Of a stretch of DNA of 64,000 nt, positions 13,519 through 62,590 are shown piece after piece. The DNA is from Schmidtea polychroa (taxonomy: Eukaryota). The translations under genes were made by a program, and so were the position numbers. The stretch spans positions 3,968,001 through 4,032,000 of the forward strand of contig CM097885.1 of assembly GCA_044892525.1 (NCBI GenBank). Direction: 5' to 3'. Each line of letters begins with the position of its first letter. Position 1 is the first letter of the stretch. The notes under the pieces were generated by a model. It was not told where the DNA came from. It made no database searches and saw only the letters and a list, made by a program, of their open reading frames with translations.

Positions 13519-13665
13519 GGTTTCTGTGTGATGCGTGGGGCAAATGATGAGCAATTGGATTGGCCGTTCAATCAATCGGTGGCAGTCGATGTGATCGATC
13601 CAGCAAATGGCAGCATTTATATGAGCAAGTCAATGAAATATTCAGATCGCCCTCGTCATGCCGGA
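13519..13665 (+). pseudogene. Orphan TRAF MATH-domain fragment
   Basis: GFCVMRGANDEQLDWPFNQSVAVDVIDPANGSIYMSKSMKYSDRPRHAG, in the opposite orientation to the full genes. Confidence 0.88.
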
Positions 13666-16472: not shown

Positions 16473-16815
16473 TATTGGTTACTTAATTGGTTATTTACCC
16501 ACTATTATACTGTGAGCTTACCGTGCCAATATTACCGTGTCCCTTGTATGTATTACACAATTATCGGGTAGCTGATGGTGACGTAATCATACACATTGTT
16601 ATGTAACCGCTGGGATTTACATAAACCATGTGATCATCATATGTAAACATCTAGTTTGGTTTGACAGTTTTAATGAACTCTTGTCGGGATGTTAACTTTA
16701 TGCTCAAACTTTGCTATTTCTGTGATAGACAGCCATCAAATATTTATTTGTCTCCTTCAGTTCGACTTGGCGATGACAAAAGAAACCAAGATCCATATAG
16801 AATACACCAGATGTA

Positions 16816-17450
16816 ATGACCCACCTTAATCAACCTTTCTCATCTGCAATCATCTTATCCTTCATAAATACCTTAACTACACAACTAAACACAAACAAAA
16901 TTGATACTCAATTTGCCCTAAATGAATTGGAAAGGATAAATGGAAACATTAATCCACAAAGATATAATTTCCCTAAAATGCCTGATGTAATTCATAAAAA
17001 ATTAAAATCTGACTGTGAACTTTTATCTGTTAAAAGATTTAAATTTAAAATTAAACCTAAGGAGGAGATTTTGAAACTATTAAGGGATCACTTGGCTATG
17101 CAAAGACCGACCGTGGATATTTCAGACGCCTTCGGGTCCATCAAACATTACCTCATATGGCACAATTTAACAGAAATGGGTCTTATCGACAAAACCGTAA
17201 ATCTAATTAAAGATATGTATAATGGTGTAAAAACCTTCTTTGAATGTGAAGGAGAAAAATCATCTTCAGTACCTTTTATAAAGGGGGTTAAACAAGGTTG
17301 CTCAATATCTATGACTTATTTTTGGTTAGCAATTGATTTTATACTAAATAAATCCTAGTAGATCATCCTTTTCTTTTCCATGGACATAATATCAGCATAT
17401 TAGCTAAGGCAGGCGATATCGTACTAGCATCTCTCTCTTAAATATCAATT
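16816..17450 (+). mobile_element. Non-LTR retrotransposon RT fragment
   Basis: DISDAFGSIKH...GVKQGCSISMTYFWLAIDF, followed by a degenerate YADD-like AGDIVLAS. Confidence 0.85.
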
Positions 17451-17898
17451 AAAAAAGCACTGACAGAAACAGTTAACCTTGCACAAAAGTAAATTTTAAT
17501 TTAAACCATCAAAATCAGGATATTTCTCACTCAATAAAAACGAATGCCCTACGGAACTATACAATGAAAAACTACTGTTGGGCTGAATTGAAATAAAAAA
17601 TAAGAAAATAGCATTAAGAAATAAGACAAACATGATAAACAAATGAGTAAAAATAAACAAAAAATTAAAAATAAAATAAGACACATAATAAAGAAGAAAT
17701 AATAAATTAGGCAATGAAAACTAAAACAAAAAATTAAAATTAAAAATTAAGATAAGAAAACAGCAATAATAAGGAAAATAACACAAAAATCAAGTAGTTA
17801 ATAAGAAAATTAAGAAAATAAATAAAAAATATAATAAAAATAAAGAAAAAATAAGAAAATTAGCAAAGAAACATAAAAATTAAATTAAAATAAATAAT

Positions 17899-17952
17899 TA
17901 AGCGGCACTCAATTTTGATTGGTCCGCACATACGCAAAAATTAGTATATAAG
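17899..17952 (+). promoter_or_regulatory. CCAAT-box plus TATA promoter-like motif
   Basis: TAAGCGGCACTCAATTTTGATTGGTCCGCA...TATATAAG, matching 3433-3485. Confidence 0.55.
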
Positions 17953-18417
17953 GTAAGCACTGAAACAAAAATTTCATTGTTAACAAATTAACCATTTAGG
18001 TAAGAAGACTTTTAATTACATGCAGTGTTAACAAATTAACCATTTAGCGTTCAACAGTTATATAGATCAATCATCAGGACAACCTAGGAGAAATTGAAAA
18101 CAAAACCATCGATTCAGCCCACAAATCAGTCGAGTTATTACTTCAACAAAACTTTAGAATTAAATCTTACCTATTTCGAACGGATACTTTGGAAAATTTT
18201 AGTTTTGCATTAATATGTAATCTGATTAAGTAATTTATTATTTGTAATATCTGAATGTAAAATTAAAGGACTTTTAAAGAACACTTCTCTTTTCACTCGA
18301 TATCATTAAATAATTAATTTTATGGTATAATTAGTAGCAACTATTATTTTTTTTTTGCGAGTTTTATATGTTTTATGTTTTATTTTTTTATGATTTATTA
18401 AAAATTCAATGAGTAAC

Positions 18418-18550
18418 GTGGAGCTGAAATGTTTCTTACCATGGTGTGAGGGGCCTTCGGGTGCTCAGCAGGTGGGTACGGAGCATTTCAGTCACGCAGC
18501 TGACTCAGGCCGAAATGTGGGGGCTTCCTCACAGGTCCGTCGCTGAAGAT
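18418..18550 (+). ncRNA. Candidate structured RNA (paralogue of 3883-4010)
   Basis: CTGAAATGTTTCTTACC pairs with GGTACGGAGCATTTCAG (16 of 17). TGTGAGG/CCTCACA forms a second helix, and there is a C(UUCG)G tetraloop. Confidence 0.55.
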
Positions 18551-20325
18551 GTGCCTAATCTAGTGGGAAATGCTAGGGTGAAGATAAAATTTATGCAGAG
18601 TATTGGAAGAGAATTCGTATTATAAAAATTTAGATGGCAGGGAGTGTCAGGAGCAGGTCTACACAGTGATTGAGGGTGTCGCACATTTGGCATAGTTAGC
18701 AATTTCTTTACATTCGGAAAATTCGCACAAAATTCGTCACTTCACCTTAATCATCCCATCACACAAGTAAAAGTATAAGAGCTCAGCTATGATAAATCCT
18801 ATTTTAGACCCACTCATTACTCCGAAAAATAAATCTCGTCGAGACGATATTTGAATTAAGATATTCTCAGAAGCGAAAACACCTTGTGAATCTCATCAAT
18901 TTTTCTATCACTCACACTAGTATCACCTCTCGAACACCAAATCTATTTCCAATTTTTTCCCTTTTAATTATCTGTTCCTCAAAACGCCATAAAATCTGTC
19001 TCACCATCTCCATTCGTCTCGTATAATCTAAATCAGTATAGGTCCATTTGTCATCATCTCCTTACCCTATAGGTATTTGAAAAATAAACGCGAAAAACAA
19101 TTAAATACATTTTATTTTGCACAACAAAACGAAAAATTGAGGTTTACTTTCGAAAATGATCCATCGCCGTGCCTGTTTGCAATACTGAGCATATCGTAAG
19201 CCCGATCTGATCTGCGAATAGCCAGCATGAGACTCCACGAGGAATGAATTTCCTTCTAAATAATTCCAATCAAACTCGACGCACGCACGGAGAACAGTAG
19301 GCTGCTAAAATTCATCGAACCATCTTCTAATAACCCTAGAACAGTTGCAAACTCACGATAGACACCGTTAATTTCCACGATTTGATGATAATTAAGCATT
19401 CCGCTACGAAAATTGCAAAATTAGCCGATGAGAAAATACTCCATAAGCAACGCATGTAGAATGAGTAAAAGTACATGTGGCATGACAAAAGTTTGATAAA
19501 AATACACCACTTAGTCTACCGGATGAGATAATACCACTTATGCCGTCTGAGGAATTTTGAATAACATAAGAGATCCGTGAGAGTTCACACACGGAAATGA
19601 CGAGATAAGTGCATTCACAGATTTTCCGCGTATACATAAATCCAAACATCGAGATAATATCATCCAGCAGTATTCTGAAAAAAACTACATCGTTATCAAC
19701 TGACTAGCCAAATGTTAGTTTTCCATCCAATGTGAATTTTTCTTGAATACCACCTGCACGTCACCAAATGACATAATCTACATTAAGAGCATGTATAACC
19801 AACAGCTGTACGTCATTGCGGGTACACGAATTGTTATCTGAATTAACGTATCGACTAAAATCCGTCCGAGACATAAATAATTTAAGTACCTCGATAAGAA
19901 TAACCAATTTAACATTTTTTTTGGATTAAAATTGAGGTTTCTGTTATCTAATGACCCGAAGTGAAAATAAATAAGGATTAATTTGATTTTTATTCTACGC
20001 ATCTTATTCTGTTATTTAATCAATTTTAATATGTATCCATTCCCACTCGGATGGCCATGAGAATATTTCCCACAAACATTCGGGCGTATTTATCAATTTT
20101 CTCGTAAAGAATTTCGACGACTATGGGGGTGATGCCATGGGGTTTTGCCTTTTAAATTTCTTTTATAGAACTATGCTAGTGCAGTAATGATCGATCGTAT
20201 TGGAGGTGAGTTTTCTCTTGTCGGTATAAGACCGCAAATGTTTATTTTTATGTACCATTGGTCTACGGATGAAGTGAATTATTGATAATTACTCTAAATT
20301 TTCTTTCCTTTTATAGCCTACGATT

Positions 20326-21031
20326 ATGAATCCAGTCGCCAAAAATGTTCTCAAACCTTGTTACTCGTGCGCAGATAAGAACGTAACCATCAAGGAACTG
20401 CAGGCACAAATCGGCTACTCAAACGCAAGATTGATGAATTGGAAGGCACATGGTTTAGCCCAGTGCAAATGAAGGAAGTGAGAAAGAAATTGTATAGAAG
20501 CGAACACTGCCAAGATAGCCTGATCGCAGAAAATAGATCTCAGTGTATGCTCATTAAGGAACAATCTAAAGCCCTTCATAAGGTTTACTTACAAGCTGCA
20601 ACAACGCGAAAGATCGTAAGCATTCCGATCAACGAAGAGGACAATGTGTTCCCCACGCATCACGATCAGCCTCTCGACAGGTCGGCACATCGAAGAAATC
20701 ATGCCAAGGGTGTGTGGAGACGGAGCTCTCGTCCAAATCTAATGACGTAATCATCACAGCACCCCCTACTGTCAGTCCTTCTTCCAAGCCCAAACGGCGG
20801 CAACTATCTCGGGCCGAACGAAAGCGAAACCAGAGGGAGAGAGGTGCAGAAAGAGAAAAGAAGCAAGTATCAGCTAATGCATCAACAGAAGGTAGTGTTG
20901 CTCCTATAACTAGTATAAACACTGGAATCCCAGGGCGCATTATCTCCGCAGCTGGCGTCACATGGAAGGAGAATGCATCCGAATTTTTCAACCTAGAAGA
21001 GCTATTAGCAGAAACTGAATGGGAGAAGTGA
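20326..21031 (+). pseudogene. Unknown CxxC/coiled-coil/basic protein ORF (two frameshifts)
   Basis: After a TTTTATAG acceptor: MNPVAKNVLKPCYSCADKNVTIKELQ..LKRKIDELEGTWFSPVQMKE...; basic KRRQLSRAERKRNQRER; acidic tail FFNLEELLAETEWEK. Confidence 0.7.
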
Positions 21032-22203
21032 CCCAGTTTTGCGAGCAAACCGAAGTTCCAGTCGTAACTCTTGTGATTTTCAATGTGATGCTCTGTGTCT
21101 TCTTGTATTGTCTGTGTTTTTCTCTTGTACATCGATAATTTAATAAATCAGTTTTGTTTAAGTCATTGCGTTTTGCTTTATGTATCGGTAAACTTTACTT
21201 TTCCTTTTCTCTACGAGATAATTTGGTTGGCTGACACCTTTGAATAGTGTATGATTTGCAACAAACTCAGAAAACGATGGAATGTCGAGTGCAGAGGTAG
21301 AGTAGGAAGACGTAAGACCTTCTATCGGCAGTCAGGAAAAGGGAAGTCGAGGCCTCGGAAAAGAGTAGTCCTAAGGCAGGGGCTCAACTGTTTTCTGGTG
21401 TCTCGCCGGCATAATACAGGACCAACATGAAGCAATTCATGGGTATTATGTTGGAATGCAGATCGTGTGGAGTTCTACTCAAGATTGACAGAAATATGAA
21501 CTATGTTAATGTAATGGGCTATCATCCTCTAGACGGGACTTAAAAGGCGTATGAGTCAACCGAGTAGCACCTCAGCACTACCTATTATAAACGACTCGAA
21601 TATTTATATATATTTAGGAGTCGATTTATCTTATAAACATAGACATAATATAGACGGAAGCCTAGAACAAGCACTCATAGACAATATAAACGCCTTCTAA
21701 TTACACCTACACCCAGCACAGGAAATCTCAGACAATAAAATCTTTATACACTCACGTCTAATGTTCACCTTGCGCAATTGTGAAATAAATCACATGATAC
21801 TCGATTCAAAGAGAAAGGAAGGAGTAATGGGTAATAATATTTTAGCAAATCCGACACGAGACCTTTAAGAGATCCAAATTTCATAAAGATGCAAAGCAAA
21901 AATTAAATAAAGTAATTCATTTAATGATTAAAAGAATGCGTAACAGAATTTGATAGAGTTTAGAAAGCACCGAGTTCACTCATCGCATCGACAGCTCTCA
22001 TTTTGGTAAACTTACCCAAACTGATGTGAAAGCAATTTGGAACATTTTATCAGTATTGTTGTTGCGGATTGCGTTGAAATGCCTCACAAATAGCTGGCGG
22101 AGGTGAAATGTTAAGGCATTATTCAATTTGATATAAGGCAATTTTGGTATTGCATTTAGGTGCATTTTACTGCCATTCAATACATCAATAATTTCTCCAC
22201 AAC

Positions 22204-22300
22204 TAGGGATTGCAAAAACAAACAAGAAAAAAGAATACCGGTATTTCAGTATTGACATTTATTGGTACCTGGGTCCCGGTATCAATACCGGTATTCCAAA
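22204..22300 (+). mobile_element. hAT-type terminal inverted repeat end
   Basis: TAGGGATTGCA terminus with repeated palindromic ATACCGGTAT. The same end occurs at ~39190-39277, attached to a hAT transposase fragment, and at ~58715-58806. Confidence 0.65.
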
Positions 22301-22329
22301 TAATAATAATTTTTTATGTAATTATGTAA

Positions 22330-22610
22330 TGTAACGATTGCCACTATTTCTGTGCGATAATGCACTAGAAGAGCGGAAATTCGACTTAAATAAATGGGAA
22401 GCAATCCAATGTTTTTTGAAATCAACATTTGAGGCCAGCAAACAATCAATCAAGCGCTAAGCAAACTGGCAGCAAGGAAGCAGAGACCAAATGAATCATT
22501 GACGATATTTGCAAGTGAATTAAGGAGATTAGCAAAGAAAGCTATGAACGGAAAATTACAGGAGGAAAATTTAATCGGGTATTTAGTTGAAGGATTGCGA
22601 AGGGAAAAAA
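22330..22610 (+). mobile_element. Gypsy-type gag fragment
   Basis: FASELRRLAKKAMNGKLQEENLIGYLVEGLRRE, the same as 58401-58690. Confidence 0.65.
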
Positions 22611-22612
22611 TC

Positions 22613-23422
22613 ACCTCAATTTGCTCTCTGATCTGATTGCATCAATAACAAATCAATAATAAATCAAATCAATAATCAAACTTGATTGATTGATCCAATA
22701 TTTGTTTCCATCTCCATTCTCAATGAGCGATTCTCATTCTTCACTGTCGCCATTTCCTCATTCAATTCTTCTATTTCTGCTCTGTTCTCCGCCTCTTTCC
22801 TTTCAATATTGCTCAATTTCACCTACAATCACAAATATTAATAAATTAATTGCAAATAAAATTTTACATTGATATTGATAATTTCCTCACGCAATTTGAC
22901 ATTCTTCTCTCTCATTTCCCGCATCTCATTGCACAAATTGCTGATCTGATCAATCATTAATTTGCTATGACCTTCATTGTTCTCATTGAGATGGAATCTC
23001 ATTTCGTCCTTCTCTACTTCGTTCATTTCGCATCCAATTCTATTGAACGGGCATTTTATTGGCTGCTTGTTACATGTTTTCATGTGGCTCTCCATCACCT
23101 CTAATTCATCTTTGAATTGACAATTTTGCATAGGGCATTTCACTATCACTCCTGAAATTCGACTGTTAGCATTATTGTCTACTACAATATCATTTGCAAA
23201 ATTTATCATTTTCTTTCCGCAATGTTTTGCTGCTCCTGGACAGAATTTATCTTTTCCATCCAAATAATGCTCAATGCAATCAGAACAAAAGCGACAACCG
23301 CAAGGAGCATTGCAAGCATTTATCATTAAACATTTGCAAATTCTGCATATCAATTCACTGCTGATTTCATTATCAAATTCAAATTTATTTCTCTTCATCA
23401 TTTCCCATACGCTTGCAAACAT
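22613..23422 (-). pseudogene. TRAF-like copy 2, 3'-truncated (no MATH)
   Basis: The RING/zinc-finger exon and exon 2 are intact. The gene is cut a few codons into exon 3 by the gag fragment. Confidence 0.88.
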
Positions 23423-23879: not shown

Positions 23880-23945
23880 CAACAAGCTTTGCGATACCCA
23901 GTGCAAATCCCAATAGTAGACGAGTTTCGAGCTTTTGGCTCGAAA
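23880..23945 (-). pseudogene. Truncated hammerhead/pseudo-LTR remnant
   Basis: The same repeat as 10335-10400 but lacking CUGAUGA. Confidence 0.6.
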
Positions 23946-24606
23946 TATTATTAAATTATAATTTGATAACAAAAAGTAAAATTTTAATGGAAAGTTAAAT
24001 AAATCCAAATTAAAAATAGATCAAAATATAATAGAAATAACTTTATTTATCTATCCTCATCACTTATAGTCGCCGATTCTCGATTTTCCACTAATTATTA
24101 TCACTTATATCCTCCCCATAAATATTTTTTAAATTGCATTAAATATATTTTATTATTGTGATCATTTTTATGAATTTTTATGAAATTTATGAATTTATGA
24201 AATGATTTTAAATAAATACAATTAATATATATCCATGCCACTTCTCAGTATATTTTCATTGACCTTCCATAATCCAATAATGAATAATTCTAACACTTAT
24301 TTTAACCTTTTTGAATTTCATTAATCATTTATCACAGAATAATAAATAATTTCCTCACTTTAATGAAGATTCCTACCACCTGAGAATAATATTGTTAATT
24401 TTATCTCTGTGTTATTAAAATTATCTTTCGACTTTACACTTCTTTCCATTTTAGAATAAGATTTTTTATCAAAACCTTTGATAATTTGACTGATTCAATT
24501 TGATGGAATTATTGTTAATTTTATTTTGCATTTTTCTAATTATGAAATATATAAAATTGCCAAGAATAGAGCATATACACGATATAAAAATTATTTATAT
24601 GATTAG

Positions 24607-25330
24607 TAGGGTTGCCAGGTGAAACCTTAAAGAACACCGGACAAAATTTTAATATAAACCTTAGGCTATGCTGCAATGTAGCTTTTAGGTGTTTTTTTAT
24701 TTTTAGAAAATATTTCTTTGACATTTTGTCATGTATAAGTGATATGAAAGCAGATACAAAGTTCGCTTTTTACTAAATTCAACGACATCCGATTACGTTC
24801 TTTAGTCCATAGATTGCCCATCACACTAAAAATTCTTTCAACTGTCGCATTCGAAACGGAATCGAATAGAGAAACTGAGCTATTTTCAATAAATTTGGTG
24901 CTGACTCTTTGAATGAAATAGTTCCCCTTTTCAAGTTAAGATGTTCTTTCAAGCGTCTCCATTAGTTTGGTGGAACTTCATCCTTCAATGGCGACAACAT
25001 CCAAAATTTCATCCAGGCTTACAGAAATGTTACCGTCTGCAAGGCTCAGCTTGAAGGTGCATATTAGGAGAATTCTGGAAATAAACTCGTCTTTATAAAT
25101 GTTTCAATGCTCTTGCTTCTTTATTAAATTTATTCACCTGACAGGGATCTAAATAGTTTTTATCATGGCAAATTTTACTTCCATGCCACAAATTCGGTGT
25201 CCATGTTATTTTTCATTGATTCTCGAAATTTGACCGTTATTAAATAAAGATCACATGCCAGAGTTGTACGAGTTTCTTGAATAAGTAGAGCTTCTTTGAA
25301 AAGAAGACATAAATTTCCTTGACCAGATAT
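24607..25330 (-). mobile_element. hAT (Blackjack-like) transposase C-terminal remnant with TIR
   Basis: TAGGGTTGCCAG terminus at 24607. The minus strand gives PNLLKIAQFLYSIP.SNATVERIFSVMGNLWTKERNRMSLNLVKSEL (hAT dimerisation motif, frameshifted). Confidence 0.8.
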
Positions 25331-26612
25331 CATTGTCCATATTGGTCCTGGACATTCATCTTCGCCTAGAGCTGAAATGTAATAATCAGCAATGACACAA
25401 ATATAATTGCATATTACTTATTCCGTAGGCTAGAAACGTTAATATTAGGAAAGGGAGAATATTTAGCTAAGCATTACCTATGGTGTTACCCTGTGAATGA
25501 ATATGAATTAATAACGAGTTGAGGGGATTTGATTTTATTCTTTCTAGCTTCTCAATGTGAAGGTGCGGAAACCTGTACACAGACAACATCCTACACTGAC
25601 ATATCGGATGGCATGCATGAAAGGAGCTGTACAACACGGCTGTTTACTCAGAACGGATAGCGAGAAATGCGTCCCAGACTGAGGGCATTTGTGTAATGTT
25701 TATGAGGGCAATGGAGGCGATTAGATTGGCTTTTCCGCAACCAGCATGAGCATTGGCACGCGGTCTGACCAAGCTTTCAATGGCTCCTCTACATGGCTGA
25801 GATGGATCTGTAAAGCATTAGATACGCCAATGGCATAATGGTAAATTATTATTCATTCCCATTGGTGAGTGAAGGAATAAATAAGTTCCTTCCTATGGTA
25901 AGGACATCAGAATAATCAATAGTGGCCATCAAAGTAATTTCGTCACCTCTCAGGCAGCTGACACGTTTCATCCATATAAAATATCACCTTTGTCAGTGGA
26001 TTAATCGAGGTTCCCTTCATTGAGATTGCGCACTTCCTGCACCGGTTTGCAGGTCCCATAATTGGTTCTGGCGTTCCATTTGCTGATAACTGCAATATCA
26101 TATTGGTATTAGCACTCTATAATTATTGATTTATTTGGTTAATGTCTCAAATTATATAACAAATTAAACTAAAAATGTTTCTGAAGGTGAGAGAAAAATA
26201 ATTGAACACACCAACACAAAACACATAATGAAAAATGCATGCAAATTTATTATAACCTTTTTTGTTCCGAAATAAATAACCGTTAACATATTGTTAACAT
26301 ATTGTTAAAATATAATTATTTCGAAATTATTAAATCATTTTGTAGGAAAATAGTTTTAATTTAGAATCCGACAGCTCTACCTTGAGCTTCAGAGAAAAAG
26401 AAGAAAATACATCGTAAAATTCAATTATAAAATTGATTAGAATATAAACTCTTTAGATTTACAGATATTTCTCAGGATACATTGCCTTTTCGCGGAGGTG
26501 GAAATCTGACAATTTAAGATTTATTCATTAAATTACAAAATATATATTTAATTTAATTATTAAAGGTGCTAGAAGGGTACGTAAGAGACCTTCAACAATA
26601 CTTGCCTCTCAG

Positions 26613-27440
26613 ATGCAAAAGCGATTCAAATCCAAAGCCGTATCTAATGAACGGGTGCAAGTTCCCGTCAATGTGTCAGAAGGATCGATGTCCCAGCTGT
26701 GTCCTCCTCAGCAACTCTCGTTGGTATCTTCATTTAATGAAGCCGCTACTCACCTTGACAAAATGCGACCAGTGGAAGTTAGTGAACTGGTTACTAAAAT
26801 TAATTCAGATTCTAATGCCAACTTGGGAACTATCACAAATGATTGCAACTCTAACATTTTCCACAAAAGATATTACATCTGGAGTTTCAATATCGGCGTA
26901 TCATACTTTAGAGATCATGAGTCAACACTTAGAGGACTATGGGAAGATACAAAGAGTACAAAATTCTTTATCTGCCAGGAGGAACTGGGTGAAAATGTCT
27001 TGAGACATCTTCAGTGCATGCTCCAGACATGCAGAAATAACACGATCTCGGCAATCAGATCAGCATACAAAATACCTTTCGTTAAAGGGCATTCGGCTGG
27101 CAAGAGGAATACCGTACTCGCTTATGCCACGAAATTGGAGACGAGGATCCCCGGATGAATTCAGATCAGCTATGGAACTCCGAGTACGAAATATGATGAA
27201 AATCATTTTAAAACTGCTCTAAATTCACAAAATTTAAATGATCAACATAAATAATTAAAGAGGAAGAGCCATTCCATTTTTTAACCAAACGCAAAGTTAT
27301 CATTGAAAGTTTGATGTCCGAATTTGGTAAAAATACTGATGCCAATATTACAGAATTTATTATTCCAAAAGTAATAAACGTGAATGAAATGCGTAGTCAT
27401 ATATTTCTGGGTCCAACAGGCATTGGAAATACTTGGATCC
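26613..27440 (+). pseudogene. Endogenous CRESS-DNA-virus-type Rep (HUH endonuclease plus SF3 helicase Walker A)
   Basis: Motif I-like WSFN, motif II EELGENVLRHLQCM and motif III AYATKLETRIPG. After a TGA and a frameshift comes HIFLGPTGIGNTW (Walker A with K changed to N). Confidence 0.75.
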
Positions 27441-28560
27441 GTTCAGTTTTTCGAAATGTTTTTCGAATGTTCCTTCATGTTTCCTCGGCTCGATTGAATA
27501 ACCCTCGATATCTTCCACGAAATTAACTAGATCTTTCCCTAGAATTTTCTTTCGACCTTCACAAGTTCCATCGGGTCCAATAGTTCCCCTTCGAGTAATA
27601 GGTACTCCTACGGTCTTGCCAACTTGGCTTTAAGTGATGCTTCATTATCAATTCGTAAGGTTCTTGGTCGGAACGCATCCTGGATATCCTCGTGTTGTAT
27701 CGGTATAGGCCGCCTGGATATTAATGTGGCTGACAGAAAGCTGAATAGCGGTGATTTCCACAATAATACTCAAACGCAGTTCTCTGCACTCTGCATTACT
27801 TTAAAGTGGTTCTATAAAATTCACTTTCTTGGTAGACATAATAGATAGCATTTTCTCCTAAATGTACACTCTCTGGATACGCTTCCTTGCACTCAATTGC
27901 ATCAACTGATGAGCATATTCGAGTTACCTTTTGGGTCATGACAATCAAACGCTGTCAATGAGCCAGTTTGTGTAAATATCCCCATCATTACTAGGAACAT
28001 TAGGATTATGCTTGTCATATTTCTCGTTCCTGCATTTCCGATATTCAATACCTTCCACGAATTCATAACGCGGTTTTGGATGAATTACATAATCCCAAAA
28101 CTTATTTTCCGTCATCCAGACCTCGAGGTAACAGTCCACTAATTCGACCATTTGATCTATTTCTCGATTGGTGAGCCTTTAATCATCTTCGTCTCGGGCT
28201 AAGGCATTTAGAATCATCATCGATACTGATGTCAATACCTACCCTTTTGTTAATCCTTGCTGCACGAATGCCTCTATCGCATCTTGAATTTTTGCGGCTG
28301 GAGTATTTTTTGGTAATTTATCCATTCTTTTTCTGATTGATGCGGATATTTTATGAACTGCAATTTCCTTTATCTTCGGGATTTTCCATTCCGGCTTAAT
28401 GTTTCCGATTATTTGCTGTAACATATTGCCATAACAACAACATAAAATTTTTCTGCTACCGTTTCATCCCTTGCCTGCTGATCTACCTCTTATCTATCCC
28501 TGTTAAGGTTTTCATTTGATCTTTTCTGGGACGCCTCGCCAACCTTTCTTTGGTTTCACG
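27440..28560 (-). mobile_element. Degenerate non-LTR retrotransposon segment
   Basis: Paralogous to 40370-41220, which runs directly into the RT motifs. Confidence 0.7.
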
Positions 28561-29640
28561 GGAGGTTTTACTGGCCCCGGGTTTTTATTGCTTGTGACGC
28601 GGTTGGGCAAATTGATATAAACCGAAGTTATTCAGTTGATAGAAAAGTGATATAAAATTGTTGGAATTCGAGAATTGAATGGCTGTCAAGGATTTGAATG
28701 AAACTGAGAGGATTTGCCTGACATTGCAGGAGGAATCTGCGGAACATTGTAAAGCAATTCAGAATTTAACGGATCAAGTTGGTCATGATCGCGATGTCAA
28801 TGATTACATGGATCAGAAACTCATCGAGATAAAGGCAGGGTATAAGAATCAATAAATCCTGAAGGTGTGGAGATTTAGAAGCGATTTGAGGAAGCAAGTC
28901 AATTCTATGAAGCTGATATTGATTGGAAGCAAGATTGTGCTGACATTCGGCTGCACAGCTTCCAGGAAAGTCATGATTTTAGAGAATCAGTAATGAAAAG
29001 GGAAAAGCGGCATTCTGTGAAGGAGAAAAAGAAAATAGTAAACCATTTGAAGCTGGCCTAGAAAAGCGCAAGAGAGAACTGATGAAACATTTTACCAAAG
29101 AACTTGCAGTGATCGATGAAAACTTTAAATTTTGATTGTGTTATTGATGTTACTTTGTTAATCATTAATTCATGTTTTTATTTTTGTTGTTTTATCATTT
29201 GCTGAAGCCTTTTTTTATTTTATTCACTCAGATTTATTTACAATCTTTTTAATTAGAAATTGTATATAAAATGTTTATTTAGGGGGTTAATAGCGAGTAA
29301 TTTAATGAGATCATGATGTAAATGGTTTAGAAACAAAAACGTGCTGCTATCTAATCATAATTTCTAGTCAAAGTTTGTATAAAAGAAAAGCTGGTAAACA
29401 AACAAATATATTAATAGTTTTATATATAAAATTCTTAATTTTTGATTTTAAATATATCATTAATAAACTACTGATAAATTGTCAATATTATATCTTGATT
29501 TTATTATATAAGATTTTATATTGGCAAATAAGCATTAAGAGTTAGGAATGAGAGACGTACACAACAACAATAAGATAACGATTGAATATCGTAATTATAA
29601 ATACAAAGTTATAAGTAGTAATTTAACACCGCACTACAGT
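28560..29640 (+). repeat. Duplicated segment with a decayed coiled-coil-like ORF (other copy 41220-42295)
   Basis: Near-identical sequence; LQEESAEHCKAIQ.LTDQVGHDRDVN.YMDQKLIEIKAG...FEAGLEKRKRELMKHFTKELAVIDENFKF with stops. Confidence 0.75.
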
Positions 29641-29774
29641 GATATTTGATTTCAGAGAGTTAAATTTACTCTAGAAACGCTCTAAAAGTAACATTGCTAC
29701 CATTTTGTTGTGTTGTGTAATAATAAAAATAATAATAATAATTATATCAGATGAAAGAGGAGAATGGTAATAAT

Positions 29775-31090
29775 TATTACTATTACAGGTTTATTCATTT
29801 TTATAATTACTTTATTCATTTTTATATCGATATTTATTAATTTTCATATCAGCATAAATAAATTTATTAACAACAAAAGCAATTTTATAATACTTTTAAT
29901 TCTAAAATGTCCCACAAGTTTCAAACATTTAAATAGAGTTTAACACGATAAAACACTTGATTTAAATCAGCAAACTCAAAATCTTTACATTCAAAACAGC
30001 AAATATATTAAATAAATGGCTGTTTTTGCCTAGCTAGCTCCAACCATCTTTTCATGTTACGAAAAATTCCTAGACATTTTAGAAAAACCCCATTTTCTCC
30101 TTGCATAACATCATTAATCAATTGGCTAACACTCGCATCAGAATTTAGCAATATTAAGCTTTTAAACCTTGCAATTACCATCGAAAAAAACTCTTCAATC
30201 GGGTTTATTTCAGGTGAATATGGCACTAAATATTTGTATCTGATTTCGTTAAGATTTCTGAAGTTTTATGAAATCTTGCATTGTTCATTATTAAAACATT
30301 GTTTGGATTACGAGTGAAATATGGAACAAGATCATTTAAAATAAATTCTTTAAATGAGGTAGAATTATACGCGCCCACCTTAGATTCGTAACATATTAAA
30401 CCATCAATTCGAATTGCACAAATTATACTATTGTTTATTCCCTTATTTGCTGGTATGCTGATATAAGGTTTCTGATTTACTGGTGAATATCCATACCTTC
30501 TTTGAGTGTGTAAACTAAATCTAGTTTCATCAAGGAAAATCATATTGCCATCAGAAATTCTGGAAACTTCGTTTGCATATATTGCTCTTGCATTAATATT
30601 AGCTAAAGAGTTACGTTCAATCGGAATTAGGAGAAGCCTTTTTCTTGTTCATGATTGTTTTTTAAGTTTTCTAGACACTCTAGACTTAGAAATTTGAATG
30701 CTACAATTTTCATTGACTGCTTGTATTTATTCTCGTTGGTTAATTGCATTGTTACATGATATTTTATTAAATATAACGTGCTCAATTTCAGTATTTATAG
30801 AATTACGAATCCTACATGAGTTCTTTCTTTTTTCTCCAACCTCTTCAAATTTTACTCCGTTTTCCTTGCTTATTAATATTTTGTGTAACTGCAATATTTC
30901 AGAAAATGTTTTTATTGTACAATTTTTATCTTCGGCCATTTTTAACACAATTTTGTAAATTTCTCTTGTAATGTTTTTTTTCTCTTTGCGAGAGATTTAA
31001 AAATATATTTCAATATAAAAATTAATAAATGTCGATATAAAATGAATAGATGTAAATATAAAAATCAATAACCATGTAATCTAATATAAT
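29775..31090 (-). mobile_element. Tc1/IS630-like DNA transposon (frameshifted)
   Basis: IFLDET, LIM(D>N)NARFHK and PYSPEINPIEEFFS. AT-rich inverted repeats at ~29775-29855 and ~31012-31090. Confidence 0.85.
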
Positions 31091-32400: not shown

Positions 32401-34066
32401 ACCGAAGGTTAACAATTGAACCAAAATTTACAAATTTAGTGATAATTGCTGTTGGTGATCTCATCGGTCTCCAGTTTTTCATCTTGATGATATTTTTCCT
32501 ATCTATATCTTCTGGATCTTCCACATATATTTCACCTTTTACTTCATAAAATATCGCGCTGTATTAAAGTTGCAATCTACATTTTTGCATTTCTCCTCAT
32601 ATATAATAGTGGACTGTTTTGTTCGAGATACTTTATTGGTGGCTTTGAAATACGATTTGGTTTTCATTTGATAATTTGCTGCGTCGAATTTTGCTTCGTA
32701 TTCTTTTATCTCTACTGAATAGGTGTCGATAACTATTACTCTGGATACGGAGTCTTCTCGTAGGGGGTAGGTTCCTCCTTGACATGCTTTTTTTGCTGAG
32801 TTAATTCTTCTACAGTTCGTTTGTTATCATTTGCAAAAAAAACATAGATTTTTCTCCCAACTCGCAACTTACCTTTAGAAATGGAGCTTACTTGCTTATT
32901 GATTTTCAAAGACTGTGCACATTCCCAACAAGGAGGTTGGCATGGGTATATTGATGGTAAAAAAATCAAATTTTCATAAATGCCTTTAAGTAAATCTATC
33001 AGCGACACTAGGACATTTTAACAACACAACGAACGAATCTGAGGTTCCAAAAAAATTTCTTATAACTTATATTTAAGATCCTGGTTGTCTTATTTTCTAT
33101 TTTTTTTAAAGCTTAAGGATATCAAGATAAATTTGGTAAGTAAAATTCATTCATTAAATTTATCAAATTTGTGAATTTAATTATTAATTAAATATTAATT
33201 ATTAATTTACATGAAATGTTTTTTGTTTTAATAATATTGTATTTGAACATTTAGCTAATGAAAAAGTGAATAAATTTATGAAATGTTACATTATTTAATG
33301 TGAAATCATTTCATTAGCTGTTAAAAAGATCTCATTACAAATGCAAATATTATTATCATTATTATATTAGCAATAATATTATTAGCAAATCGGACACGAG
33401 ACCTTTAATTGATCCAAATTTCATGAAAGATGCAAAGCAAAAATTAATTAAAGCAAATCATTTATTGATTAAAAGAATGCGTAACAGAATTTGATAGAGT
33501 TTAGAAAGCACCGATTGCCCTCATCGCATCGACAGATCTCATTTTGGTAAACTTACCCAAACTGATGTGAAAGCAATTTGGACCATTTTATCAGTATTGT
33601 TGTTGCGGATTGCATTGAAATGCCTCACAAATAGCCGGCGGAAGTGAAATGTTAAGGCATTAATATTTTTGATTTAAGGCAATTTTAGTATTGCATTTAG
33701 GTGCATTTTACTGCCATTCAATACAGCAATAATTTCTCCACAACTCATATAACATCAGCAGCAGCGATGTCGTTTTTCTCGTCGGTTCCATTCGTCATAG
33801 GAGCGCTTGATTTGTTGAGGCGATTTGTCAGCGCTTATATTCGGGTGGATTTTGATTGGATTATTTCTTTCACATTAATTATTAATTTAATTATAATAAA
33901 TATAATGATAATATCGGATGGAAGGCGCGGGGGGGAGAATGACAATGATTATCTTAATAATTATCTCATATAATAAATCAATAATAATAATAAGGCAAAT
34001 AATAAATCAGATCAAAAGCCAAAATAAATCAATTTTTTATTGCAATGTTTTTTAAATTTATAAGAA

Positions 34067-35515
34067 TTATGCAATTCTGCACCTGAGCAGCAATTTATCA
34101 TATTTGGCTGCTAATTGACGGATTGAGCGATCATTATCATAAATGCAAATCAGATTTATCGGACCCTCATCATAAATGCGAATTGGATCATTTCTGCTCT
34201 TTGACGGTTTCCTCCATCCGGCTGCATCAGGGCAATCTGAATATTTCATTGACTTGCTCCTATAAATGCTGCCATTTGCTGGATCGATCACATCGATTGT
34301 CACCGATTGATTGAACGGCCAATCCAATTGCTCATCATTTGCCCCACGCATCACACAGAAACCAACCTCAACCCCAAGACCCCCAATCTCCACCGCCAAA
34401 CACATTTTGTAACCGATTTGCCCGGAATAAAATGCCTCGCTGTAAATCCATTCATTTCTCTTTTGCTGTGAAAATTTATCGATTTCCCATTCAAAATATC
34501 CATAATTTATATATTTTTCACTTCCTAATTTTGTTTCAATCAGCCGGATTTCCTTGGCGCATTTCGCCATTTCAAGCTGCAACTGAATCTCAAATTCAAA
34601 TATTTCAATAAATCAATAAATCACTTTTTCATTCTCCCGTTGCAGCCGCTGCTCGCATTTCTCGTTAATCTCATCAATTTGCTGTTGACATTTTGATTCA
34701 ATCACCTCAATTTGCTCTCTGATCTGCTTTGCATCAATAACAAATCAATAACAAATCAAATCAATAATCAAACTTGATTGATTGATCCAATATTTGTCTC
34801 CATCTCCATTCTCAATGAGCGATTCTCATTCTTCACTGCCACCATTTCCTCATTCAATGCTTCTATTTCTGCTCTGTTCTCCGCCTCTTTCCTTTCAATA
34901 TTGCCCAGTTTCACCTACAATCACAAATATCAATTAAATTAATTACAAATAAAATTTTACATTGATATTAATAATTTCCTCACGCAATTTGGCATTCTCC
35001 TCTCTCATTGCCTGCATCTCATTGCACAAATTGCTGATCTGATCAATCAGTAATTTGCTATGACCTTCATTGTTCTCATTGAGATGTATTTTCATTTTGT
35101 CCTTCTCTACTTCATTCATTTCGCATCCAATTCTATTGAACGGGCATCTAATTGGCTGCTTGTTGCATGCCCTCATGTGGCTCTCCATCACCTCTAATTC
35201 ATCTTTGAATTGACAATTTTTCATTGGGCATTTCACTATCACTTCTGAAATCCGTAAATTGATCGCCTGATCTTCATAAACATCTTTAATAAAATTTATC
35301 ATTTTCTTTCCACAATGCTTTGCTGCTCCTGGACAGAATTTATCGTTTCCAACCAAATAATGCTCAATGCAATCAGAACAAAAGCGACAACCGCAAGGAG
35401 CATTGCAAGCCTTTATCATTAAACATTTGCAAATTCTGCATATCAATTCACTGCTGATTTCATTATCAAATTCAAATTTATTTCTCTTCATCATTTCCCA
35501 TACGCTTGCAAACAT
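34067..35515 (-). CDS. TRAF-like protein, copy 3
   Basis: Same four-exon structure with splice sites conserved. The MATH has a short internal duplication-like insertion (IRIYDEGPINLICIYD). Confidence 0.88.
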
Positions 35516-35689: not shown

Positions 35690-38600
35690 AATTATCAGTG
35701 TTTTTCTCATTTATTTATAAAATTATATTATAACAATCTTTCATTAGCTTTGATTCAAATGATTTAACTCTGTCACAGTTTATTATCCTTGGTGCTCCAA
35801 ACTTCATTATCCACTCTTCTTTCAGTAATCTTACCACTGTTTTTTCATCTTGCGATTTCACTGCATATAAAGAAATAAACTTACTATGATGATCTATAAT
35901 CCCAAGAATATATCTTTCTCCTTTCATTTCAAGTTTAATTGGATTCAAAAATCTATATAGATTGTTTCAAATAGTTTCGAGTCACTTTTGCAAATTATTT
36001 CTTTTTTTGTTTTAGTTGTATCAACCTTTCTTTTCTGACAGTTTTCACAGGATTGTACAACATTACGAATAGATTGCTCCAAATCTTTCATATCAAAATT
36101 GTTTGATACATACATTTTTACTTTATTAGTACCCGCGTGACAGAGCTTTTTATGATATTCTATGATGAATTCAGACTTGTTTTCTTCTGGAATCCAAATT
36201 TTATTATTATTTGTCATAATCACTCCGTTGAAATATTTAAAAAAATGTTTTATCTGGCATCAAATTATTATTTTCTTTTATATTTTTTATTTCTTTCGAG
36301 TTCTTTTGTCATATATTTTCAATATTATCAGTCATCAGTGTCAAAAATCTTGTTTCTAATTTACCCATTTTAGAATTTTCATGAATCATTTGCAATTGAA
36401 CACATGTTTCACATTCTTTTCTAGATTAAGCGTCGGCATTATTGTGGTTATCACCTTTTCTGTATTGAATCTCCATGTCCAGACCATTAAGATGGTTTAT
36501 CCAAGTTTGAAATTATGGGGTAATAGCTTTCTTTGTCTTCATCATAAATGTAATGGCTTTGTGATCCGTCCTCAAAATAAACTTTTTACCATATAGATAA
36601 TGCTTAAAATCACCAGTAAAATAAAATATAGATAGTAATTCCTTTCTTGTTATACAATAACCCAACTCATGTTTATTCATAGCTTGGCATCTATATGCGA
36701 TTACTCTTTCTTTACTTCCATCTTTTTGAGACAGAACAGCACCAATGCGGTCAAAACTTGCATCTGTATCTCAAATGAATGGCTTCGAAAATTCTGGGAA
36801 CTTCAATACAGGTGTAGATGTCAATTTCAGTTTTAAATTTTGAAATGAAGCTTCACACTCATCATTCCACATCAGCTTCTTTTGTTTACTTCCACATAAC
36901 GCTTCTAATACTTTGAAATCTTTGGTGTAATTTTCTATAAATCTGCGATAGTAATTTGCCAAGCCTAAAAATCCTCTCAAACTTCTTACGCATTTAGGTC
37001 TTTCAAAATGTTTAATAGTTTCAATCTTGCTTTCATCCGTACGTATTTGATCTTCACCAATGATATGACCCAAAAATTTTACTTCTTTCCTTTTGAATTG
37101 ACATTTTTCTGGACTTATTTTAAGATTTGCTAATTTAATCTTTTGAAAAACCTTTTCAATGGTACTATAATGTTCATTCAATGTCTTTGAAAATATAAGG
37201 ATATCATCCAGATATACAATTGTTCCATTCCAATTTTATTCTCCAAGAACCAAATTCATAAGTCTTTGAAATGTTGCTGGTGCAGCTGCTATTCAAATGG
37301 AATTCTGTTAAAGTAATATTGCTTGCTTTTTGTCGAAAATGCTGTTTTCAATTTTGATGCATCATCGAGTTCTACTTGATAATAAGCATTGCCTAAATCA
37401 ATTGTCGTGAAAATCTTTGCTCCGTCAAGAATATCTAATAATTCATCAGTATTTGGAATGGGAAAAATCGGTCTTTCGGTTATATTATTTAAAGCATGGT
37501 AGTCCAAGCATATTCTTATATCACTACTGTTTTTCTTTTTAACACATACTAATAGAGAATTCCAAGGAGATGTACATTCTGATATAATGCCATATTTCAA
37601 CATTTCTTGAATATTTTCTTCAATTTTTTCTATTAAATGTATAGGTTGTGGCCTTGGGTTTATTACAATCGGACTACCTTTAGTAAGTATTTCATGCTTT
37701 AATAGTTCGGTTTTCCCAACATCCCATTTATGTTTCATAAAAATACCGTCAAACGTGGAAATTAAATTATTTATTATCTTATCTTCACTTATGTGGTTAT
37801 TAAATATATTTTCCATAATTGCATTTATTTTGTTTGTACGGTTTTCTATTTGCAATTGCATTCCAAATCTTTCGAGAAAATCTATACCTCCTATTAACTT
37901 TGGGTTTATATTTTTGGCTACAACGAATTATACTTTTTTAATACCAGAAATTTTATCAACTTTTACATTTAATAAAGTTTTACCGCAAATTGCAATCGGG
38001 CTATCATTCGCATTTTTTTTTAAATTACTTGTAGTCATATTCAAATTTCCAAGTTTTTTAAAAATATTATAATCAATCACACTTATTTTACCTCCAGTAT
38101 CTAATAGGCATACTAATTTTACATTATTAATCATCACGGTAACACTGGGCCCTCTCTGCATTTTATCATATACTATTATATCATTCCGTTTATCACGATT
38201 AAGAACATTTATTTCATTAGAAGTTAGAGGTGGGTCTTTAAAAACTTCATCCATACAAAATTTATTAATGTATATATAAATATAATTTCTATAATCAAAA
38301 ACACCATCACAACAGTTATCATCCAAACTATCACAATCATTCAAAATCATAGAAGCCTTACTCATATCATTAATTACCTTTAATTTATTGCTCCGATCGC
38401 CTCCTCGTGTGGTGAAGCATTCCCATTTGGGTACTCAAAATCAGCCTCTGGATCTTCGTCACCGAATGCAGCCACTGATTTATGGAATTTTCGACATCTG
38501 TCTGGAAATAACTAATGGCACTGATGTTTGAAATGTCCAGATCTTTTACAATGGGCACATTGAATATTGGGGCATTCAGATCTTCTATGACCTTCTTCGT

Positions 38601-38880
38601 GGCACGCCCAACATCGCAAAATTTGATTTGTTCGGACATGATCTCTCGAATGAAATTCCCTGGTATTATAAGGCTTACTTCTATTCATAGTTTTCCATCC
38701 ATTTGAAATAGCATATCGATGTTTTCTGGTAAGATCGCCATTGAATCTTGGATTATGTTGAGGTTCTCTTGTATATTCATCTTTAAATCTGTGATTAGCT
38801 TCTCGTTCTCGATTTGATCTGTTATCATAACTATATCTTGATGAAAGCTTCAGCTTAACATTTGATGAGTGGGCGTCCAT
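35690..38880 (-). mobile_element. Decayed Ty3/Gypsy gag-pol
   Basis: CCHC knuckles (CWACHEEGHRRSEC), protease LLDTG, RT (IDLGNAYYQV, YLDDILI), RNase H region, and integrase HHCC plus core, in Gypsy order. Many stops and frameshifts. Confidence 0.92.
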
Positions 38881-38899
38881 AAAAAACAGAAGATATATA

Positions 38900-39277
38900 A
38901 ATATAAATGTTCATTCTGCTTGCAAAATATTTTGGAACCTCGGACTGACTCCTATACATGGCTCACTACCAGCTGAAAAGTGTGTTGAACTTGTAGATAA
39001 AAAGCTAGTAGATAATGGCCTTTCTTTAAATGAAAACATTGTTTGTATAACGACAGATGGAGCGTCAGTTATGACTAAAGTAGGAAGATTAATAAATGCA
39101 AAACAGCAACTTTGTTTCGCACATGGCATACAATTAGCCGTCATCAAAGTACTTTATCAATTTATTTTGAGATTTATTATTTTTTGAAATACCGGTATTG
39201 ATACTGGGATCCAGGTACCAATAAATGTCAATACCGAAATACCGGTATTGTTTTTTTTTGTTTTTTTGCAATCCCTA
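38900..39277 (+). mobile_element. hAT transposase fragment plus TIR
   Basis: ITTDGASVM...QQLCFAHGIQLAV, then ATACCGGTAT repeats and a TGCAATCCCTA end. Confidence 0.8.
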
Positions 39278-39989: not shown

Positions 39990-41220
39990 CTTTTGTGCAA
40001 GGTTAACTGTTTCTGTCAGTGCTTTTTAATTGATATTTAAGAGAGAGATGCTGGTACGATATCGCCTGCCTTAGCTAATATGCTGATTTTATGTCCATGG
40101 AAAAGAAAAGGATGATCTCCTAGGATTTATTTAGTATAAAATCAATTGCTAACCAAAAATAAGTCATAGATATTGGGCAACCTTGTTTAACCCCCTTTAT
40201 AAAAGGTACTGGAGATGATTTTTCTCCTTCACATTCAAAGAAGGTTTTTACGCCATTATACATATCTTTAGTTAGATTTACGGTTTTGTCGATAAGACCC
40301 ATTTCTGTTAAATTGTGCCATATGAGGTCATGTTTGATGGACCCGAAGGCGTCTGAAATATCCAAATACGGTCTTGCCAACTTTCGCTGTAAGTGATGCT
40401 TCATTATCAATTCATAAGGTTCCTGATCGGAACGCATCCTGGTAATCCTCGTGCTGTATCGGTACAGGCCGCCTGGGCATTGATGTGGCTGACAGAAAGC
40501 TGAATAGCGGTGATTTCCACAATAATACTCAAACGCAGTTCTCTGCACTTTGCATTCCTTTATTGTTGTTCAATAAAATTCACTTTCTTAGTAGACATAA
40601 AAGATAGCATTTTCTGCTAAATGTATGCTCGCTGGATACGCTTCCTTGCACTCAATTGCATCAACTGATGAGCATATTCGAGTTACCTTTGTGTCATGAC
40701 AGTCAAACGCTGTCAATATGCCCATCATTACTAGGAACATTAGCATCATGCTTGTCATATTTCTCGTTCCTGCATTTCCGAATACTTTCTACGAATTCAT
40801 AACTTCGGTTCTGGGTGAATTACATCATCCCAAAACTTATTTGCCGTCATCCTCGAGGTAACAGACCACTATTTCCACCTTTTGATCTATTTTTCGATTT
40901 ATGAGTTTAGTATCATTATTGATACTGATGTCAATACCTTCCCTCTTGTTAATCCTTGCTGCACGAATGCCTTTATTACATTTTGAATTGCTCCCACTGG
41001 AGTATTTTTTGGTAATTTATCCATTCTCTTTCTGATTGATGCGGTTATTTTATGAACTGCAATTTCCTTTTTCATCGTCATTGCCATAACAACAACATAA
41101 CATTTTTCTGCTACCGTTTCCTCCCTTGCCTGCTCGTCTACCTCTTGGCTATCTCTGCTAAGGTTTTCATTTGATCTTTTCTGGGACGCCTCGCTAAACT
41201 TTCTTTGGTTTCATGGGAGG
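39990..41220 (-). mobile_element. Non-LTR retrotransposon RT remnant
   Basis: YLDISDAFGSIKH...GVKQGCPISM. Confidence 0.85.
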
Positions 41221-42299
41221 TTTTACTGGATCCGGGTTTCTAGTGCTTGTGATGCGGTTGGGCAAATTGATATAAACCGAAGCTATTTAGTTGATAGAAA
41301 AGTGATATAAAATTGTTGGAATTCAAAAATCGAATGGCTGTGAAGGATTTGCCTGACATTGCAGGAGGAATCTGCGGAACATTGTAAAGCCATTCAGTAT
41401 CTAACGGATCAAGTTGGTCATGATCGCGATGTCAATGAATACATGGATCAGAAACTCATCGAGATAAAGGCAGGCTTCAAGAATCAATAAGTCCCAAAGG
41501 TGTGGAAGCGATTTGAGGAAAAGAAAAGCACATTTGAGGAGACAAGTCAATTCTATGAAGCTGATATTGATTGGAAGCAAGATTGTGCTGACATTCAGCT
41601 GCAAAACCTCCAGGAAAGTCATGATTTTAAAGAATCAGTAATTAAAGGGGGAAAAGCGGCATTCTGTGAAGGAGAAAAAGAAAATAGTAAACCATTTGAA
41701 GCTGGCCTAGAAAAGCGCAAGAGAGAATTGATGAAACATTTTACCAAAGAACTTGCAGTAATCGATGAAAACTTTAAATTTTGATTTTGTTATTGATGTT
41801 ACTTTGTTATAATCATTAATTCATGTTTTTATTTTTGGTGTTTTATCCTTTGCTGAAGCCTTTTTTTATTTTATTCACTCAGATTTATTTACAATCTTTT
41901 TAATTAGAAATTGTATATAAAATGTTTATTTAGGGGGTTAATAGCGAGTAATTTAATGAGATCATGATGTAAATGGTTTAGAAACAAAAACGTGCTGCTA
42001 TCTAATCATAATTTCTAGTCAAAGTTTGTATAAAAGAAAAGCTGGTAAACAAACAAATATATTAATAGTTTTATATATAAAATTCTTAATTTTTGATTTT
42101 AAATATATCATTAATAAACTACTGATAAATTGTCAATATTATATATTGATTTTATTATATAATATTTTATATTGGCAAATAAGCATTAAGAGTTAGGAAA
42201 GAGAGACGTACACAACAACAATAAGATAACGATTGAATATCGTAATTATAAATACAAAGTTAAAAGTAGTAATTTAACACCGCACTACAGTGATATTTG

Positions 42300-48371: not shown

Positions 48372-48753
48372 ACTGAGGAAGCCACTGATAGGGACCCAAT
48401 GATAGGAAGCCACTGATAGGAAACCACTTATAGGGAGCCAATGATAGGAAGCCACTGATAGGAAGCCACTGATAGGAAGCCACTGATAGGAAGCCACTGA
48501 TAGGAAGCCACTGATAGGAAGCCACTGATAGGAAGCCACTGATATGAAGCCACTGATAGGAAGCCACTGATAGGAAGCCACTGATAGGAAGCCACTGATA
48601 GGAAGCCATTGATAGGAAGCCCCTGATAGGAAGCCGCTGATAGGAAGCCACTGATAGGAAGCCACTGATAGGAAGCCACTGATAGGAAGCCACTGATAGG
48701 AAGCCACTGATAGGAAGCCACTGATAGGAAGCCACTGATAGGAAGCCACTGAT
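48372..48753. repeat. 14-bp minisatellite (GCCACTGATAGGAA)n
   Basis: About 27 head-to-tail units with no spacers. Confidence 0.95.
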
Positions 48754-62460: not shown

Positions 62461-62590
62461 TTCAGCGACGGACCTGTGAGGAAGCCCCCACATTTCGGCC
62501 TGAGTCAGCTGCGTGACTGAAATGCTCCGTACCCACCTGCTGAGCACCCGAAGGCCCCTCACACCATGGTAAGAAACATTTCAGCTCCAC
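62461..62590 (-). ncRNA. Candidate structured RNA, duplicate of 18418-18550
   Basis: Reverse-complement copy. Confidence 0.55.

Follow-up and report, generated by a model that had tools for sequence, protein, structure and literature searches.

Positions 26613-27433 on the forward strand of the window (the whole 64-kb stretch of DNA that was analysed) hold a decayed rep gene of the CRESS type, in which an open HUH nuclease domain is closed by a stop and, beyond a break in the frame, an oligomerisation region leads up to a damaged Walker A motif. Very probably, the locus is an endogenous, now defunct piece of a replicon of the circular, Rep-encoding ssDNA kind in the germline of an animal, and the replicon was most likely a virus from an unclassified lineage of Cressdnaviricota. 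An earlier account of this DNA, made from the letters alone (the sequence-only reading), had proposed a fossil of a ssDNA virus or plasmid-like replicon. That proposal is supported by the order of the domains, the fold, the lesions, the relatives and the continuity with host repeats; that the donor was a virus, we infer. The parts of the locus are as follows.

26565-27433, forward strand: putative inserted viral DNA, approximate extent, from a GC change point (5') to the end of homology to relatives (3')
26613-27158, forward strand: 5' part of rep, open, 181 codons plus stop, comprising an 84-residue extension and a complete HUH nuclease domain (from the ORF, the relatives and the model)
26880-26897, forward strand: equivalent of RCR motif I, WSFNIG, without the usual Thr (aligned to WVFTIN of duck circovirus Rep, 7kii)
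27003-27020, forward strand: RCR motif II, RHLQCM, His and Gln metal ligands kept (His invariant in 5/5 aligned sequences)
27123-27146, forward strand: RCR motif III, YATKLETR, catalytic Tyr and Lys kept (Tyr, Lys, Thr and Arg invariant in 5/5; matches nanovirus YSMKEDTR)
27156-27158, forward strand: premature stop TGA at the end of the nuclease domain (homology goes on past it, with IQISYG next in frame)
27159-27254, forward strand: linker in the first frame, to the frame break at about 27240-27254 (the frame closes at 27252-27254)
27251-27433, forward strand: oligomerisation region and Walker A in the second frame (45% identity over 62 aa to P0005, 41% over 61 aa to P0006)

The motifs quoted in the sequence-only reading (RHLQCM, YATKLETR..IQISYG and GPTGIGNT) are all present in order on the forward strand, as are the stop and the frameshift that it described, the second frame opening at 27251 just before the first one closes. 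The motif I equivalent, WSFNIG, had been left unmentioned; the relatives have FSFSFP, FRFSLP and FALTVN at this position. A counterpoint to the interpretation as a CRESS Rep is that this motif lacks the Thr described for viral Reps, in which it is conserved (PMC8780604).

Around 26565, GC rises abruptly from 24% to 42%, so the 5' edge of the insert likely lies there; the insert thus appears to begin only about 50 bases upstream of the rep ATG and is a fragment. Given that ATGs at 26688 and 26763 are in frame with that at 26613, any of the three could be the true start. The length of the ORF is beyond chance, with none of 2000 base shuffles of 26532-27158 yielding an ORF of 181 codons. A code that reads TGA as Trp is not indicated, as none of the four relatives has Trp at the column of the stop. 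The distance separating the motif III Tyr and the conserved helix that follows differs by at most one codon from that in the relative P0003, so the frame break is best explained by a small indel. In the Walker A motif (GPTGIGNT, 27410-27433), Asn takes the place of Lys. Homology to the relatives ends at 27433; the window has no Walker B or motif C, which can be read from the relatives only. The stop, the frame break and the Walker A change argue against a live contaminant, and because the helicase has been lost, the locus cannot replicate now. No second Rep fragment was found anywhere in the 64-kb window, where the element is single-copy, and no long terminal inverted repeat was found around it.

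With the 5' piece as query and its stop read as X, an exhaustive phmmer search of 1.84 billion proteins returned three matches (E 6.8e-6, 2.0e-4 and 2.6e-4), all of them unnamed singletons from single-contig records; the relatives align to residues 83-204 of the piece. One of the three, P0004, carries Viral_Rep and RNA_helicase domains. Searching with P0005 added one further relative, P0006, among 968 candidates (besides P0005 itself). The 3' piece, which had not been used in finding P0005, matches both P0005 and P0006 at the identities listed above, and on a profile of these two proteins it scores 45.6 bits, whereas none of 500 shuffles exceeds 7.0 bits. This test is independent, neither relative having been selected with the 3' piece. 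P0003 and P0004 match that piece poorly (E 0.2 and 0.045, respectively). Furthermore, both pieces of rep match P0005 in the right order (tblastn sum E 5e-17). The nuclease part scores 66.4 bits on its own profile, a value that is not independent, given that three of the four profile members were found with the query.

Comparison with known structures places the nuclease next to those of nanoviruses and circoviruses. When the five-sequence nuclease profile was compared with the PDB, the best 8 of 12 matches were nanovirus and circovirus Reps (E 6e-8 to 1e-4), and geminivirus Rep structures followed at E 0.2-0.74. The nanovirus Rep is the best profile match (E 6e-8), with circovirus Reps close (4e-7) and ahead by Z score. 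A model of residues 80-181 (pLDDT 76.7) adopts the HUH fold; it matches a nanovirus Rep in Foldseek (6h8o, E 5e-4) and superimposes on a circovirus Rep (7kij) with a Z score of 9.7 and an rmsd of 2.5 over 88 aligned residues, the top seven rows of this comparison all being CRESS Reps. In BFVD, 95 matches reached E <= 0.001, and among the best 50, which are 15-29% identical to the query, all 16 named proteins are viral Reps. The seven Atlas matches listed are all mostly viral clusters, with Cressdnaviricota as the commonest phylum (scores 0.91-0.93). The model of full-length P0005 (pLDDT 41.5) was set aside. In sum, the Rep nucleases of nanoviruses and circoviruses head the profile and fold searches, in which no Helitron signal was seen; this upholds the CRESS-type assignment of the sequence-only reading; that account was to be given up if the best matches were Helitrons or other non-viral HUH proteins, or if there was no HUH match, and neither outcome was observed.

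Searches with less sensitive tools or in other collections returned little. The nuclease piece alone matches no Pfam family at E <= 1, nothing meaningful in PHROGs or NCBIfam, and a single PDB entry (E 0.67); the fossil is undetectable by Pfam alone. None of 43 candidates from a word-index search with P0001 matched. Relatives were found neither in phages by tblastn nor in 72,556 plasmids, and Rfam gave no match. In GTDB genomes, a scan with the alignment of P0005 and P0006 yielded none of 263 stretches. One GTDB stretch of 72 (L001) did match, by chance, through the peptide HLQCMLQT, which is read in a shadow frame spanning the point where two other long ORFs meet.

The mechanism by which Reps start rolling-circle replication is established for circovirus and geminivirus Reps, and we carry it over to the fossil by homology. 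In the living replicon, the Rep would start rolling-circle replication, with the His and Gln of motif II holding a metal ion and the Tyr of motif III nicking the origin hairpin and staying attached to the 5' end, while the central domain would assemble a hexamer and an SF3 ATPase would unwind the DNA. Solved Reps coordinate the metal through the motif II His and Gln and a Glu, use the motif III Tyr as nucleophile, and continue into a hexamer-forming domain and an SF3 ATPase (PMC8780604). About 0.9 kb would have integrated, either by the nick-joining activity of Rep or by repair of a host break, two routes that are indistinguishable here; the stop, the small indel and the change in Walker A would have come after integration. 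A deletion would have joined rep, tail to tail and mid-gene, to a glycoprotein-bearing repeat, removing the rest of the helicase. The two features on the far side of this junction are the following.

27423-28050, reverse strand: decayed chuvirus-like (Monjiviricetes) glycoprotein gene, the 3' neighbour of rep, cut mid-ORF at the junction (PF24664, E 0.012)
27609-29653, no strand assigned: 2-kb repeat carrying the glycoprotein relic (87.5% identical to 40367-42304; boundary seen at 27609)

The copy of the glycoprotein gene near 40.4-41.0 kb (40350-41000, reverse strand) matches PF24664 at E 2.5e-5, and both copies score under the curated cut-off of the family. The stretch nearest to rep, 27423-27563, has a paralogous counterpart at 32644-32784 (30% over 47 aa). 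The glycoprotein frame reaches the junction and overlaps the last rep-like codons, and the last two residues of Walker A may belong to either side. The truncation after Walker A described in the sequence-only reading is real, homology ending at 27433, but its attribution to a retrotransposon, though plausible, calls for qualification: the neighbour is a repeat with a glycoprotein-like gene, itself cut mid-ORF, and no reverse transcriptase or LTR end was found at the junction. Because the two genes are both cut mid-ORF and stand tail to tail, a deletion that fused two older relics appears to fit better than a clean retrotransposon insertion. The glycoprotein-bearing repeat may well derive from an LTR element. 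Further possible glycoprotein-like sites, by resemblance only and with no Pfam match, occur at 32640-32900 and 42500-43050 (reverse strand), and the copy at 40-42 kb adjoins a region with a zinc-knuckle ORF. The glycoprotein repeats could represent an env-bearing LTR element; in the screen reported in PMC10084718, glycoprotein capture was found only in mosquito Pao elements.

No capsid gene was recognised in the flanks of rep. None of the eight nonamer-like sites in 24000-27700 forms part of a stable hairpin (-0.2 to -3.2 kcal/mol), and for the flanks and this interval, respectively, the outcome is the same as in the sequence-only reading, which had found no capsid ORF and no nonanucleotide stem-loop. 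The core ANTATTAC occurs 26 times in the window, against 16 expected, at scattered sites; only one of these falls in the element, within rep and not in a hairpin. A unique stretch with a GC content of up to 50% (25480-26100), immediately upstream of the element, looks like a decayed gene. Tested as a candidate divergent capsid, it gave no match in Pfam, NCBIfam or the PDB.

The missing capsid and origin bear on the nature of the donor. That neither was found nearby speaks for a capsid-less replicon, such as a satellite or a eukaryotic plasmid, or for a Rep-bearing repeat multiplying in the genome, and Rep-derived repeats are known in fungi and animals (PMC3198968). We nevertheless consider such a donor unlikely: the element is single-copy in 64 kb and has no long terminal inverted repeat, the contigs of the relatives (2.4-4.3 kb) offer space for a second gene, and the plasmid and GTDB searches described above gave no true match. 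An assembly error that placed viral or other foreign DNA in the scaffold, at a repeat, is a still less probable explanation. The assembly is gapped and rich in repeats (runs of N at 11987 and 55533), and the 3' junction lies inside a repeat, but both junctions are free of gaps, the nearest of which are 14 kb and 28 kb away, and the three lesions of the gene are unexpected in a replicating virus.

The distribution of those lesions could also be taken as a sign that the open 181-codon nuclease ORF now serves the host as a co-opted, functional gene, as the frame stops at the boundary of the nuclease domain, the catalytic His, Gln, Tyr and Lys are intact, and all lesions lie 3' of it. However, chance alone would place two frame-breaking lesions in the last third with p of about 0.11, and an overlapping +1 frame (see below) is equally unbroken, which fits a recent insertion; we regard co-option as highly improbable. 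The reading with the least in its favour, and hardly credible in our view, is a remnant of a Helitron, of a parvovirus-like element (PIVE or PEVE type) or of another non-CRESS HUH protein. Such elements likewise have an HUH nuclease fused with a P-loop helicase, a Parvo_NS1 cluster stands at rank 11 among the Atlas matches of P0005, and parvovirus-like repeats have been described in planarians (PMC3198968). Against this, no Helitron, PIF1 or Parvo_NS1 family is detectable at E <= 1 in the six frames of 23900-30700, so that the succession of a Rep domain and a PIF1/SF1 helicase typical of Helitrons is not seen. The AAV2 origin-binding domain ranks 28th in the fold search (TM 0.33), behind the CRESS Reps; motif III is of the single-Tyr YxxK form, and the helicase of the relatives has SF3-type spacing. 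The profile and fold searches, headed by nanovirus and circovirus Reps, largely refute this alternative. The planarian PEVE was dropped as a candidate source, PEVE and PIVE being parvovirus-like (PMC3198968).

In addition to the decayed rep frame, the locus carries a second open frame, which covers the extension as well as the first half of the nuclease.

26557-27003, forward strand: overlapping +1 frame, 148 stop-free codons (118 aa from the ATG at 26647), candidate overprinted accessory gene (codon permutation)

In 20,000 codon permutations of the rep ORF, a +1 frame of this length arose with p 1e-4 and one in any frame with p 0.008; counted from the rep ATG, the values are 0.002 and 0.02, respectively. 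Among 13 control ORFs of the window, the lowest p is 0.059. These p values come from a post hoc test. The product of the +1 frame matches no family or PDB entry, and no homology to C4 was detected. We see an even chance that the frame is an overprinted accessory gene and that the 5' half of rep was dual-coding in the virus. Such dual coding would account for the N-terminal extension of rep. This extension of about 80 residues had been called unusual in the sequence-only reading, a judgement that does not hold within the lineage, in which 16, 33 and 222 residues precede the motif I region of the relatives, compared to 84 in the fossil. In geminiviruses, rep carries C4 as an overprinted gene in its +1 frame (PMC8160170), the same relative frame as here. 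The ORF described here differs from C4 in being longer (118 aa from its ATG, compared to 85-100), in starting inside the extension and in having no Gly-2 myristoylation start. The unbroken +1 frame points to a separate origin of overprinting on rep beyond the geminiviruses.

The locus is surrounded by an AT-rich, repeat-dense eukaryotic scaffold, on which four intron-split TRAF genes in tandem, pol of the Gypsy type and relics of DNA transposons occur; these genes and relics indicate that the host is an animal. The other features of the window are listed below.

8449-9870, 22685-23422, 34073-35515 and 51999-53417, reverse strand, and 13522-13662, forward strand: local TRAF expansion (four RING/zinc-finger exons, three MATH exons, one fragment)
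35800-38910, reverse strand: decayed Gypsy-type element (zinc knuckle, protease, reverse transcriptase, RNase H, integrase)
17000-22611 and 58399-64000: inverted duplication, 5.6 kb, 99% identity
30229-30648, reverse strand: Tc1/IS630-like transposase relic (DDE_3, E 2e-12)
24750-24860, reverse strand: weak hAT dimerisation relic (E 0.028)
48376-48755: 14-bp tandem repeat, 27 copies, 94% matches
16801-17355, forward strand, and 40123-40375, reverse strand: fragments of reverse transcriptase from a repeat that occurs at three sites

The nearest relatives of the TRAF proteins are five unnamed proteins (52-64% identity), and TRAF genes are greatly expanded in planarians (PMC6109357), so that a planarian host is a fair guess, at about even odds. 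The inverted duplication may be either a recent copy of an element or a duplication in the assembly.

A decayed Rep in an animal genome is a well-documented phenomenon and by itself unsurprising to the specialist; the present case draws its interest from the divergence of the gene, the candidate overprinted gene and a prospective link to a host. Table 1 of PMC3198968 gives 305 endogenous matches to circular ssDNA viruses in 35 eukaryote species, 302 of them to Rep. The present fossil resembles known endogenous Reps in being Rep-only, degraded and of low copy number. It differs from them in lying below Pfam detection, being too divergent for Pfam-level screens, and, should the host be a flatworm, in its host group, as that Table 1 holds no flatworm; sequences derived from CRESS capsids have been reported in flukes (PMC10269781). 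In a literature consisting mostly of open-access papers, we found no report on the lineage of P0003, P0005 and P0006 or on CRESS Rep fossils in planarians, although the survey by Zhao, Lavington and Duffy (2021) may already cover the locus or the host group. Endogenous copies are direct evidence, and the standard route, for assigning hosts to cressdnaviruses, most lineages of which have no known host (PMC9615429). Grouped by sequence similarity with three unnamed proteins (P0003, P0005 and P0006), the fossil could tie that divergent lineage to a host. We tentatively suggest, as a possibility we do not rate highly, that it is the first host-anchored trace of a deep-branching unclassified cressdnavirus lineage that includes these three proteins and combines a nanovirus- or circovirus-like nuclease, a geminivirus-type central region and helicase, and a +1 accessory gene independent of C4, in an animal host, possibly free-living flatworms.

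Within this set, which shares the non-canonical motif I of the fossil, P0003 and P0005 are about 30% identical to its nuclease and 41% identical to one another over 112 aa. P0005, P0006 and P0003 are longer than the fossil and lie on Logan contigs of 4342, 3170 and 3516 bases in the order P0006, P0003 and P0005. P0005 and P0006 keep the whole helicase, whereas P0003 stops before Walker A. The helicase of the relatives runs from Walker A through DD to N with a spacing of the SF3 type. What characterises a CRESS-type Rep is to be seen in the locus, namely, an HUH nuclease with motifs I-III (motif I without Thr) and the HUH fold; the oligomerisation domain and the SF3 helicase follow in the correct order as far as Walker A in the window, and the rest is present in the relatives only. 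The bacterial pCRESS elements are a poor fit, considering the YxxK form of motif III, the eukaryotic context, and the lack of a plasmid match or a true GTDB match; in pCRESS4-8, motif III is YLxH (PMC8780604).

With the nanovirus master Rep (FBNYV, 2hwt/6h8o) and circovirus Reps (7kii/7kij, PCV2), the fossil has in common the nuclease fold, motifs II and III and the YxxKxxTR..G run, but it is only 17-22% identical to them and differs in motif I. The likeness does not extend to the 3' half: the profile of the relatives covers only the N-terminal part (residues 39-134) of full-length PCV2 Rep (7lar), no RNA_helicase match is seen in P0005 or P0006 at E <= 10, and the helicase of the relatives scores -1.1 bits against that of P0004. 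Judged by sequence, the helicase half is not circovirus-like, as it would be in Circoviridae. The central region instead resembles Gemini_AL1_M (E 0.035 in the window and 3.4e-4 in P0006, both below the cut-off), and in the Atlas, Gemini_AL1 and AL1_M clusters come top for P0005 (0.98), with many other Rep clusters at 0.97. The likeness to geminivirus and genomovirus Reps is confined to this weak central match; the nuclease is not geminivirus-like, with no match to the Gemini_AL1-type nuclease of Geminiviridae and Genomoviridae (PF00799) at E <= 1. A placement in Circoviridae or Nanoviridae cannot be made for the fossil, since the 3' half looks like a central domain of another kind, weakly similar to that of geminiviruses. 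The combination of a nanovirus- or circovirus-like nuclease with a weakly geminivirus-like central region suggests a chimeric Rep. The chimeras described so far combine their parts otherwise, CRESS-Rec1 being smaco/circo and CRESS-Rec2 gemini-like/circo (PMC5923481). CHIV14 was considered as a case of the same domain mix and rejected, being gemini/nano, the reverse (PMC4419787). Cruciviruses have a tombus-like capsid, and none accompanies the fossil. In the chimeric Reps of cruciviruses and of unclassified CRESS viruses, the nuclease and the 3' half likewise point to different families, and about 71% of unclassified CRESS Reps are chimeric (PMC5923481).
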